DNA of 16,821 bases from a virus (taxonomy: Duplodnaviria > Heunggongvirae > Uroviricota > Caudoviricetes). The stretch lies in the IMG/VR virus record IMGVR_UViG_2713896784_000031, one strand, 5' to 3'. The notes beneath the pieces were generated by a model. That model saw only the letters and a program-made list of their open reading frames with translations, searched no databases and was not told the DNA's origin. A program made the position numbers and the translations under genes. Of the stretch, positions 11,974 to 13,732 are shown one piece after another. Each line of letters opens with the position of its first letter. Within the stretch, counting starts at the first letter, position 1.

Positions 11974-12624
11974 ATGCCGTCTGAACAGAATCTCCAACCG
12001 TGTTTTGAAATCAATCCTTGTTTGGATGAAAAATCTGTTATCAATCTTCTTCAGCAATTTGCTAACGTACTTGGCGAATTATGGTTCCATCGCCATGAGT
12101 ATGATGATAACTGGATTAATGGATGTAGGGCCTATGGATGGATAAAAAACTTTCTTGTAAAAAATCATAAAAAACTCAAAGGAGTGGCGATTCTTTCAAC
12201 ACCTCTGAATTTTGTGTTTACCCTGAACAGGGTGCCGTTACAGTTTGTGACCGATAAACTGGATTCACCAAAAAAGAAACATCGCTTATGTAAAAATGAT
12301 GTTGAGTGTCGTCAGTTATCTCTTTTTGAAGATGATGTTAATTTTGAACATGATGTTACATGGCGTGTTCTGGCTGAAAAATTACCATCTGCAAATAAAA
12401 AAGATGAAGATATTGAACCTCCAACGTGGCTTTTAGCCCTGATAGGTTTTGATTCATCAAATAATGTAGTGAGTAGATACGAATTGGTGTCTAAAGTCCA
12501 TGCTCCAGTACAAGCAGCTAATACTGACGTATTGCCAGAGGCCGTGGAAACACCACCGCTGAATTTGCAGCGGCGTGTTAAGAATGCGAAAAAAGCAGAT
12601 AGTGATAAATATGGAACTATTTGA
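11974..12624 (+). CDS. Hypothetical protein of unknown function, 216 aa, first gene of an AT-rich cargo cassette (candidate toxin or effector)
   Basis: The ATG at 11974 has a GAGGGA ribosome-binding site at 6 nt; AT-rich codon usage unlike flanking phage genes; no motif I recognise; its 3' end overlaps the start of the next gene. Confidence 0.55.
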   Translation: MPSEQNLQPCFEINPCLDEKSVINLLQQFANVLGELWFHRHEYDDNWINGCRAYGWIKNFLVKNHKKLKGVAILSTPLNFVFTLNRVPLQFVTDKLDSPKKKHRLCKNDVECRQLSLFEDDVNFEHDVTWRVLAEKLPSANKKDEDIEPPTWLLALIGFDSSNNVVSRYELVSKVHAPVQAANTDVLPEAVETPPLNLQRRVKNAKKADSDKYGTI

Positions 12625-13732
12625 TTCTATAGGTAATTATCGTGGTGACTGCTTAAAATTAGCTCGTCAGGCTAAAGGGGTTACGGGCGAAGAGCTTGCT
12701 ACTGCTTTGGGGGTGACTCGGCAATTTATAAACAAGTTAGAGCGTGGTTATCCCCCTTCATCTCAGATGTTGACAGCTCTTGCAGATTATCTGGATGTTA
12801 AAGAGTCGTTTTTCTTCACTGGAAGGAAATCACCATTAGACAGCGAGAACTGCCATTTCAGAAGCAAGAGATCAAGGACGCAGTCCTTAACTAATAGTAT
12901 TCTGGCTCGAGCTGAAATTTTGGAGCAGTTTGTAAAGTGTTTGGAAACAGAAATAGTTCTTCCAGAATTGAACTTTCCTGATACGTCCGGATTACCTTTG
13001 AACTCCGATGAAGATATTGAAAGAATTGCCGAGGCCTGTAGAAGGTATTGGGGTTTGGGGCTGGGACCGATATCTTCAATGGTTAATTTCGTGGAAAGTA
13101 TTGGGGTTGTTGTTGCTCATGTATCTGGCGTGGATGATCGTATTGATGCGTTTACTATTAATAGTAAACGCCCATTGATAATTAGAAATTCCGCGAAAAA
13201 GAGTGTGTGTCGATTTCGCTCAGATCTCGGTCATGAACTGGGGCATCTTGTTTTGCATGAAGGGATTATAACAGGGGATAAAATTACAGAACATCATGCG
13301 GATTATTTTTCGAGCGCATTCCTTGTACCTAGAGTTTCGTTCGTTAATGAATTTCCTAAAATGCGAGGATCGCATCTTGACTGGAATGCACTAATTAATT
13401 TCAAAGAACGATGGAAAATCAGTCTTCGCATGTGTATTTATCGTGCTACGGTTTTGGGGCTGATTACGCCACAACAAATGAGAACGGGATTTATCCATCT
13501 AAATAAAAGAGGGACGATTAAAGGAGAGATGGGGGATGAGTTAATCCCTGAGGAAAAACCTCGCTTACTTTCCTGTGCAGTTGAATTGCTGGATATATCT
13601 TCTTGGAAGCAGATACTGGATATGTCGGGAGTGAGGGAACGCTTTGTTTCCAAAATGTTTGGAATAAGGCGCACACATGATGATATATCGAGTAATATTG
13701 TGCCTCTTTATAGATACAAAGACTTTGGTTAA
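12611..13732 (+). CDS. XRE-family HTH fused to an ImmA/IrrE-type (M78-like, COG2856) zinc metallopeptidase, about 373 aa
   Basis: N-terminal HTH (LARQAKGVTGEELATALGVTRQFINKLERG) and HEXXH motif HELGHLVLHE with the downstream acidic context typical of ImmA/IrrE peptidases. Alternative in-frame starts at 12575 (GTG), 12584 (ATG) and 12602 (GTG); I chose 12611. Confidence 0.8.
   Translation: MELFDSIGNYRGDCLKLARQAKGVTGEELATALGVTRQFINKLERGYPPSSQMLTALADYLDVKESFFFTGRKSPLDSENCHFRSKRSRTQSLTNSILARAEILEQFVKCLETEIVLPELNFPDTSGLPLNSDEDIERIAEACRRYWGLGLGPISSMVNFVESIGVVVAHVSGVDDRIDAFTINSKRPLIIRNSAKKSVCRFRSDLGHELGHLVLHEGIITGDKITEHHADYFSSAFLVPRVSFVNEFPKMRGSHLDWNALINFKERWKISLRMCIYRATVLGLITPQQMRTGFIHLNKRGTIKGEMGDELIPEEKPRLLSCAVELLDISSWKQILDMSGVRERFVSKMFGIRRTHDDISSNIVPLYRYKDFG

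Follow-up and report, generated by a model that had tools for sequence, protein, structure and literature searches.

RosmerTA systems, which pair the toxin RmrT with the antitoxin RmrA, were described by Millman (2022), with a verified system from Escherichia coli OLC-716. They provide protection from phages, and rmrA proved refractory to deletion (Millman preprint). The present analysis concerns a two-gene cassette of probable RosmerTA type at positions 11974 to 13732 of a 16,821-nucleotide stretch of Caudoviricetes DNA (IMG/VR record IMGVR_UViG_2713896784_000031; hereafter the window). The window is 100% identical to the Rac-like prophage next to ttcA in E. coli 2011C-4251 and in many other Shiga toxin-producing E. 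coli (STEC) or bovine isolates. A recent study of O157:H7 counts RosmerTA among the strain-specific systems, possibly but not necessarily in the form of the locus in the window.

Rosmer systems are also carried by phages. That of Gordonia phage Kita defends E. coli and its RmrT depolarises membranes, and RmrA is the conserved partner of varying RmrT toxins (PMC10440598). Where a Rosmer system is present, rmrA is essential, and ClpX or ClpP is essential in hosts with Rosmer-type pairs: rmrA is essential in three Pectobacteriaceae strains, which are the sole strains with an essential clpX, too, and clpP is essential in E. coli E101 because of a prophage toxin-antitoxin pair (Rousset et al., bioRxiv 10.1101/2020.05.25.114553), to which a later paper refers as Rosmer. 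RipA, the pneumococcal Rosmer toxin, interacts with the sliding clamp DnaN and is suppressed by substitutions in the hydrophobic pocket of DnaN (PMC12795458).

Assignment of the cassette to RosmerTA

The genes of the cassette and the domains of its second protein are as follows.

11974 to 12624, plus strand: gene 1, rmrT, from ATG to TGA; 216 amino acids (aa); toxin/effector component by profile
12611 to 13732, plus strand: gene 2, rmrA, from ATG to TAA; 373 aa; antitoxin/regulator by profile
12653 to 12811, plus strand: XRE-type helix-turn-helix (HTH) domain of RmrA, aa 15-67; Pfam HTH_3 5.8e-13, HTH_31 1.1e-09
13094 to 13447, plus strand: M78 (ImmA/IrrE, COG2856) zinc-peptidase domain of RmrA, aa 162-279; Pfam Peptidase_M78 5.6e-13

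The PADLOC RmrT model PDLC03929 was matched by gene 1 over positions 9-197 of its 198 (E 1.4e-18), and gene 2 matched the RmrA model PDLC03943 (E 5.7e-107, aa 10-352) as well as 13 further RmrA models. The cassette is therefore most probably (approximately 0.85) a RosmerTA toxin-antitoxin and anti-phage module carried as accessory cargo of the Rac-like prophage, with toxicity, neutralisation and phage defence carried over by analogy from other members. The organization of the locus is that of a RosmerTA operon: the gene matching the RmrT profile is adjacent to and co-oriented with a gene whose single product combines an N-terminal XRE HTH and an M78/COG2856 domain and matches the RmrA profile, and a conserved promoter-like block lies upstream of the toxin gene in four loci. 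Since the start of rmrA overlaps the stop of rmrT by 14 nt, translational coupling of both genes is likely.

Other collections gave a corresponding picture. RmrT belongs to PHROG 5786 (6.6e-72) and RmrA to PHROG 2439 (3.2e-118). The NCBIfam model of the spr1629-family antitoxin matched RmrA with 1.7e-47, which is below the cutoff of that model, and searches of Pfam and NCBIfam with the 216-aa RmrT returned no family. A whole-library profile search for the gene 1 family yielded 126 cluster representatives, mostly of approximately 200 aa, and all 113 full-length relatives of gene 1 matched PDLC03929 (best 3e-72). Outside the window, too, members of the family immediately precede an RmrA-type gene in further genomes and taxa; the contig profile scan for toxin-antitoxin adjacency, made with the narrow gene 1 alignment, returned two loci. 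In the RmrT and RmrA series of PADLOC, the numbering of which seems to run in parallel, the first models (PDLC03929/03943) match the window pair, the seventh (03935/03949) the verified pair of OLC-716, and the tenth (03938/03952) a pair from Zymomonas. Because of this matching rank, the toxin and the antitoxin of the window are read as cognate, which suggests that they are an already catalogued pair.

In RmrA, the HELGH sequence of the peptidase covers aa 208-212 (nt 13232-13246) and is followed downstream by the glutamate-containing motif EHHADYFSSAFLVP. HTH regulators in the PDB matched aa 9-77; this isolated HTH is the only part of RmrT or RmrA for which solved structures were found. The combination of an XRE HTH and an M78 zinc peptidase with HEXXH is shared with ImmR/ImmA (of the integrative and conjugative element [ICE] ICEBs1), DdrO/IrrE, and CapH/CapP. 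By analogy, this suggests that the peptidase of RmrA may cleave a protein with an HTH when stress or infection is signalled. However, in these pairs the domains reside on two proteins that control the transcription of an element or a defence operon, whereas in RmrA they are fused and the protein is the predicted antitoxin of the adjacent toxin.

The original prediction, which had been made from the sequence alone, described two co-oriented genes with a 14-nt overlap, and the same two coding sequences (CDS) are annotated in RefSeq at an identical locus as "hypothetical protein" (WP_001138877.1) and "helix-turn-helix domain-containing protein" (WP_000418464.1). The AT-richness it reported is reflected in a guanine-plus-cytosine (GC) content of 0.40 for the cassette (gene 1 0.379, gene 2 0.410), compared with 0.516 in the replication module on the left and 0.485 in the module on the right. 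Its XRE HTH and HELGH...E motif in the second protein correspond to the Pfam domains listed above. Its proposal of a toxin-antitoxin-like or anti-phage module, including a tentative mention of Rosmer, is supported by the PADLOC matches. These also assign the roles as it had done: the effector is the 216-aa protein, and the regulator is the HTH-peptidase. The degree of novelty was overstated, as the system type is already catalogued. The cassette is a known type of system and not novel as a kind, and standard tools such as PADLOC and DefenseFinder would flag it; as a locus, it matters little beyond being one more RosmerTA entry in the inventory of defence and toxin-antitoxin systems of STEC prophages.

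Compared with the OLC-716 system, the cassette has the same layout of a two-gene operon with the toxin gene first and an antitoxin of approximately 370 aa consisting of an XRE HTH and an ImmA/IrrE-type zinc peptidase. Both toxins have a length of approximately 200-240 aa, and according to the models they share the order of secondary-structure elements and a disordered tail. RmrA of the window is 30% identical to the verified RmrA of OLC-716 over 296 residues (E 2e-36). In contrast, the toxins belong to different families (PDLC03929 here, PDLC03935 in OLC-716) and have no detectable sequence similarity, and the cassette sits, within a Rac-like prophage, in the cargo slot of the nin region. A dissimilar RmrT next to a similar RmrA fits the picture of varied toxins with a conserved RmrA (PMC10440598).

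Two further pairs resemble the cassette. RipAB (Spr1630/Spr1629) of Streptococcus pneumoniae has the same antitoxin architecture, as seen in the match of RmrA to the spr1629 family below its cutoff; however, the window pair is not an ortholog, and RipAB is tied to ClpX and to the induction of competence and not to phage defence. The E101 pair (WP_001179380.1/WP_000481765.1) is likewise borne by an E. coli prophage and consists of a domain-less toxin and a downstream antidote. Its accessions differ from those of the window pair, and the likeness is drawn from the published descriptions.

The region upstream of rmrT contains the following elements.

11880 to 11910, plus strand: P1, promoter-like copy; TTGACG (11882-11887), 16 nt, TAAAGAT
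11913 to 11943, plus strand: P2, conserved promoter-like block, GGTTTACAAAAATAAAATTTTGCGTAAAGAT; -35 TTTACA at 11915-11920, -10-like TAAAGAT at 11937-11943
11963 to 11967, plus strand: Shine-Dalgarno-like AGGGA preceding rmrT

P2 is located approximately 30 nt upstream of the rmrT start. It was compared in four loci, namely the window, E. coli O55:H7 (L002), a metagenome-assembled genome of Enterobacteriaceae (L003), and Proteus faecis (L004). The orthologous toxin genes share the upstream block GGTT(G/T)ACAAAA...GCG(A/T)AAA(G/T)AT, which comprises a -35 element of the TTGACA type and a weak -10-like element 16-17 nt downstream, whereas the surrounding DNA has diverged. This conservation would be consistent with a promoter of the cassette's own. 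P1 overlaps a perfect 10-nt palindrome, ACGAATTCGT (11885-11894), and the direct repeat TAAAGATTAG/TAAAGATGAG was found in the upstream region of the cassette. The palindrome is a possible candidate for an operator bound by the HTH of RmrA.

Two results weigh against the assignment. The comparison of gene 1 with the verified OLC-716 RmrT family was not significant in BLASTP and gave a probability of <1% in hhalign; the sequences thus provide no ground on which a common origin of the two toxin families could be claimed. Furthermore, a generic consensus promoter scan upstream of gene 1 found nothing convincing, and P2 was not called because its -10 element is weak.

A variable cargo slot in Rac-like prophages

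The cassette and its promoter region occupy a segment that is exchanged between related prophages.

11787 to 13741, no strand assigned: variable cargo segment holding the cassette and its promoter region; 1.95 kb, GC 0.394

The homology to prophages with the same flanks ends at 11786 (L010) or 11613 (L009) and restarts at 13742, and the flanks themselves are common to related prophages at 90-96% identity. The segment is a swappable AT-rich cargo insert, in line with the original prediction, which had placed the cassette where lambdoid phages carry morons: other genes are found between the same flanks in related prophages. With at least 99% identity, the cassette is present in 31 of 5,426 complete E. 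coli genomes, including O157:H7, O103:H2, bovine isolates and two mouse isolates, a distribution that rules out a universal Rac gene. In approximately 238 further genomes, a stretch related to RmrA is found with approximately 70% nucleotide identity, similar to that of E. coli O55:H7 RM12579.

The alternative cargo between the same flanks comprises two small hypothetical genes in PEC399, a pair of sce7726-family and beta-family genes in APEC-O117H42 (L010 1464-3099), and, in other strains, genes with the annotation Doc toxin, HNH endonuclease, QueH or methyltransferase. In RM12579 (L002), DUF977 is followed by a SIR2 gene (L002 1322-2281), hokD and a diverged Rosmer pair, the toxin of which is 41% and the antitoxin 59% identical to those of the window. 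Phage Tritos carries hokD followed by another RmrT/RmrA pair, upstream of DUF968 and Q. A cargo slot of Rac-like and lambdoid prophages is thereby defined between the DUF977 gene of the replication module and hokD/DUF1367, and its alternating contents include further Rosmer variants as well as genes with SIR2, sce7726/beta family or Doc annotations.

Several observations were made at this slot and at related Rosmer loci. The sce7726/beta pair and the SIR2-family gene appear to be candidate defence genes, exchanged with Rosmer within identical flanks. In RM12579, the Rosmer pair after hokD is followed by a second, exact 24-nt copy of the hok terminator (L002 4713-4736, corresponding to 13986-14009 of the window); the cassette of this strain is bracketed by two terminator copies, which may be a trace of cargo exchange at the slot. 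The region of strain AUSMDU00014361 (NZ_CP045827.1 2611373-2616788) is approximately 1 kb longer and encodes an additional HTH protein and a separate "ImmA/IrrE family metallo-endopeptidase" beside the Rosmer pair; these genes could stem from an additional insertion, or they could form a divided HTH/peptidase pair beside the fused protein. In Salmonella enterica subsp. houtenae ATCC BAA-1581 (L006 approximately 1890-2490), a complete, unannotated open reading frame (ORF) of approximately 205 aa belonging to the RmrT family and starting with MKQPWELNPELTQERL immediately precedes a homologue of RmrA that shares 39% identity with the protein of the window, beside an integrase near trmE. The existing annotation covers this ORF with a 41-aa fragment only.

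A putative clamp-binding motif in RmrT

In the AlphaFold2 (AF2) model, RmrT is a globular alpha/beta protein with a predicted local distance difference test score (pLDDT) of 88. Two short motifs were noted in its sequence.

12313 to 12327, plus strand: QLSLF codons, RmrT aa 114-118; candidate beta-clamp (DnaN)-binding motif
12532 to 12582, plus strand: short conserved motif in the C-terminal tail of RmrT, aa 187-203, LPEAVETPPLNLQRRVK

The first motif is part of RQLSLFEDD (aa 113-121), in which QLSLF is followed by the acidic linker EDDVNFEHD. QLSLF is a canonical bacterial clamp-binding motif with submicromolar affinity for E. coli DnaN (PMC12309361). Among 113 members of the RmrT family, Q114 is conserved in 100, E111 in 96 and L117 in 80, and Q114 ranks among the four best conserved positions of the family. 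A family consensus Q-L-S-L-x-F is obtained from L115, L117 and F119, with an acidic linker of variable length after the motif, and the pattern Q-h-x-h-(x)-h is kept at this site in 81 of the 113 members. A comparable central motif, again with acidic residues after it, also occurs in RmrA-adjacent toxins of other profile families:

PDLC03938: ZCP4_1785 of Zymomonas, QLSLF
PDLC03930: orf71 of phiCD27, QLSFF
PDLC03940: proteins of Enterococcus, Lactococcus and S. pneumoniae, QYNLF, QYTLF, QYDLF and QFDLF
PDLC03935: verified OLC-716 family, QLKLDL (NLDLF in a Vibrio/Photobacterium clade)

For the verified-type toxin, AF2 places the motif in a loop that is disordered (pLDDT <50 at aa 134-155). The canonical pentapeptide in the window toxin also fits the genetics of the DnaN pocket described for RipA (PMC12795458). 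In view of the QLSLF motif, its kin in other RmrT families and the RipA-DnaN data, we propose, tentatively and at somewhat less than even odds, that RmrT may bind the cleft of DnaN via QLSLF and thereby block replication. The action proposed here would equal that of the type VI toxin-antitoxin system SocAB of Caulobacter crescentus, in which the toxin blocks replication at the hydrophobic cleft of DnaN and is controlled through ClpXP (PMC12795458). However, SocA is a protease adaptor and not an HTH-peptidase, and the resemblance is mechanistic only.

A more general form of this proposal, which we regard as possible but a shade less probable, is that RosmerTA toxins are largely sliding-clamp poisons. 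The family of the window and at least five other RmrT families, unrelated or distantly related in sequence, have a central motif of the DnaN-binding type; in this view, the motif would sit in a linker of a common fold, and RmrA together with ClpXP would bar it from the clamp until infection. If true, this would extend the single RipA-DnaN observation to a whole defence family and make the E. coli cassette a tractable model for clamp-poisoning Rosmer toxins. DnaN poisoning is a specific hypothesis that can be tested cheaply in E. coli with established clamp reagents, and it is the only part of the present analysis that a specialist might find new.

Several points argue against a clamp-directed toxin. 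In the AF2 model of RmrT, QLSL is located at the end of a predicted helix (aa 109-117, pLDDT approximately 76), where a linker begins, and no clearly disordered loop is seen, so that the accessibility of the motif is only a possibility; because of this placement, E111 and Q114 could instead have a structural or catalytic role. Relaxed clamp-motif patterns are common by chance and, by our own estimate, occur in approximately 5-9% of 200-aa proteins. The study on RipA (Spr1630) reports no clamp-binding motif (PMC12795458), and the S. pneumoniae protein covered by the motif comparison is a homologue from another Rosmer pair. The RmrA partner of this homologue scored 236.8 bits, below the spr1629 equivalog cutoff of 335 bits. 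Finally, Rosmer toxins are heterogeneous, as illustrated by the membrane depolarisation caused by the Kita RmrT; judged by such analogies, a mechanism is therefore not transferable from one RmrT family to another.

The second, non-RipAB Rosmer pair of S. pneumoniae was found in the assembly of run ERR039567 (L016 3001-4783) and consists of a PDLC03940 toxin with QFDLF and a PDLC03954 antitoxin. It is located among genes resembling those of a conjugative element (TraC-like, DUF5592).

The tail motif of RmrT lies in a part of the AF2 model that contains no secondary structure after aa 173 and has a pLDDT of 58-75 at the C-terminus. The positions recurring across the RmrT family are P188, A190, V191, E192, P194, P196 and basic residues at 200-203. 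Speculatively, this motif could act as a degron or be the place at which RmrA docks or cleaves.

In a working model, the lysogen would transcribe the operon from a promoter that belongs to the cassette, probably with autoregulation by RmrA through the HTH. RmrA, probably together with the host ClpXP, would keep RmrT inactive until phage infection or a loss of RmrA frees the toxin. Free RmrT, soluble and globular, would then dock via QLSLF in the hydrophobic cleft of DnaN, which would stall host and phage replication and lead to abortive infection or growth arrest.

Alternative explanations

The same conservation might arise if the QLSLF-type motif were a docking or cleavage site for the shared RmrA, or a site for a ClpX adaptor, and the toxin acted on another target. 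A homologous RmrA is common to all RmrT families, and a motif recurring across unrelated toxins could reflect this shared partner; ImmA/IrrE-type peptidases are known to cleave specific partner proteins (PMC10440598), and a dependence on ClpX or ClpP is reported for Rosmer systems. We nevertheless consider such a site to be rather unlikely as the main role of the motif, which agrees residue for residue with an independently defined DnaN-binding consensus (PMC12309361), and the sole Rosmer toxin with a mapped target hits the peptide-binding pocket of DnaN (PMC12795458). Recognition by RmrA and binding of the clamp would be compatible if RmrA masks the motif.

With regard to the biological role, the cassette might serve addiction or stabilisation only, i.e., post-segregational killing upon loss of the prophage without real protection against phages. 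The essentiality of rmrA, or the failure to delete it, in several hosts would be expected of such an element, as would the classical toxin-antitoxin behaviour of the E101 prophage pair, which makes clpP essential. The role shown for RipAB is a physiological one in competence and not one in defence, and the cassette is accompanied by two other prophage toxin-antitoxin loci, hokD/sok and ralR/RalA. On the other hand, measurable phage defence was obtained with two Rosmer systems that have other toxins, and the slot carries other cargo in related prophages, including the SIR2, sce7726/beta family and Doc genes mentioned above. An exclusive addiction role is therefore judged unlikely, and the two roles are mutually compatible.

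Improbable as well is a PD-(D/E)xK-type (restriction-endonuclease-like) nuclease that would degrade DNA on release. A search for the catalytic D...(D/E)xK on strands 2 and 3 of RmrT found no acidic-x-Lys signature, and the residues conserved there are F80, F82, P88, R/Q90 and F91.

An ImmR/ImmA-type switch for the induction of the prophage or an ICE, or a CapH/CapP-type regulator pair of a neighbouring system with gene 1 as an unrelated moron, was rejected as highly improbable: although ImmA/ImmR and CapP/CapH consist of Peptidase_M78 and HTH_3 domains as well, and the PADLOC models capP (1e-11) and capH (0.0016) also match RmrA, the full-length RmrA models far outscore capP, a single protein combines HTH and peptidase, a separate repressor/Cro pair of the prophage lies approximately 4 kb upstream at 7574-8332, no cyclic-oligonucleotide-based antiphage signalling system (CBASS) or other regulated defence operon adjoins the cassette, and the position of gene 1 relatives directly upstream of RmrA-type genes recurs in other genomes and taxa.

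Prophage context and neighbouring loci

The gene order before the cassette is intR, xisR, ralR, recT, recE, kilR, repressor/cro, ydaT, ydaV, DUF1627 and DUF977. It is followed by hokD, DUF1367, DUF1364 and, in the place of the Q antiterminator, a DUF1133 gene. The element on the right of the cassette is the following.

13742 to 14010, plus strand: hokD/sok type I toxin-antitoxin locus with terminator, outside the cassette; Rfam sok 13742-13842, 60.9 bits

In the identical genome, hokD is annotated on the plus strand. The hok ORF of the window is masked by a run of 50 Ns (13844-13893), which stands for approximately 200 bases of the real genome. The original prediction had the cassette closed by a strong terminator. 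The terminator-like hairpin exists (13985-14002 plus a T-run), but hokD/sok intervenes and the hairpin is the terminator of the hok mRNA; a scan found no terminator between the stop of gene 2 and hok/sok. In many lambdoid prophages, hok/sok is the right border of a variable cargo slot.

The antitoxin small RNA (sRNA) RalA was detected at 1557-1735 (Rfam, 219 bits) and is part of the Rac ralR/RalA type I toxin-antitoxin pair, so that three toxin-antitoxin loci, ralR/RalA, hokD/sok and Rosmer, are found in 16.8 kb. Near the immunity region, a cluster of sRNAs is located on the minus strand at 6464-6929, comprising the C4 antisense RNA (6464-6551), isrK (6576-6652) and DicF (6879-6929), all with scores exceeding the Rfam gathering thresholds. 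The anti-GcvB sRNA AgvB, which is typical of STEC prophages, was found on the minus strand at 16303-16364. A tRNA match at 16057-16116 corresponds to a tRNA-Met in the identical genome and is partly masked by an N run. Further N runs are present at 3813-3873 (inside recE), 16162-16211 (the run at the tRNA) and 16565-16614. The ORF of recE in the window has 849 aa, compared with a CDS of 2,670 bases in the reference genome.

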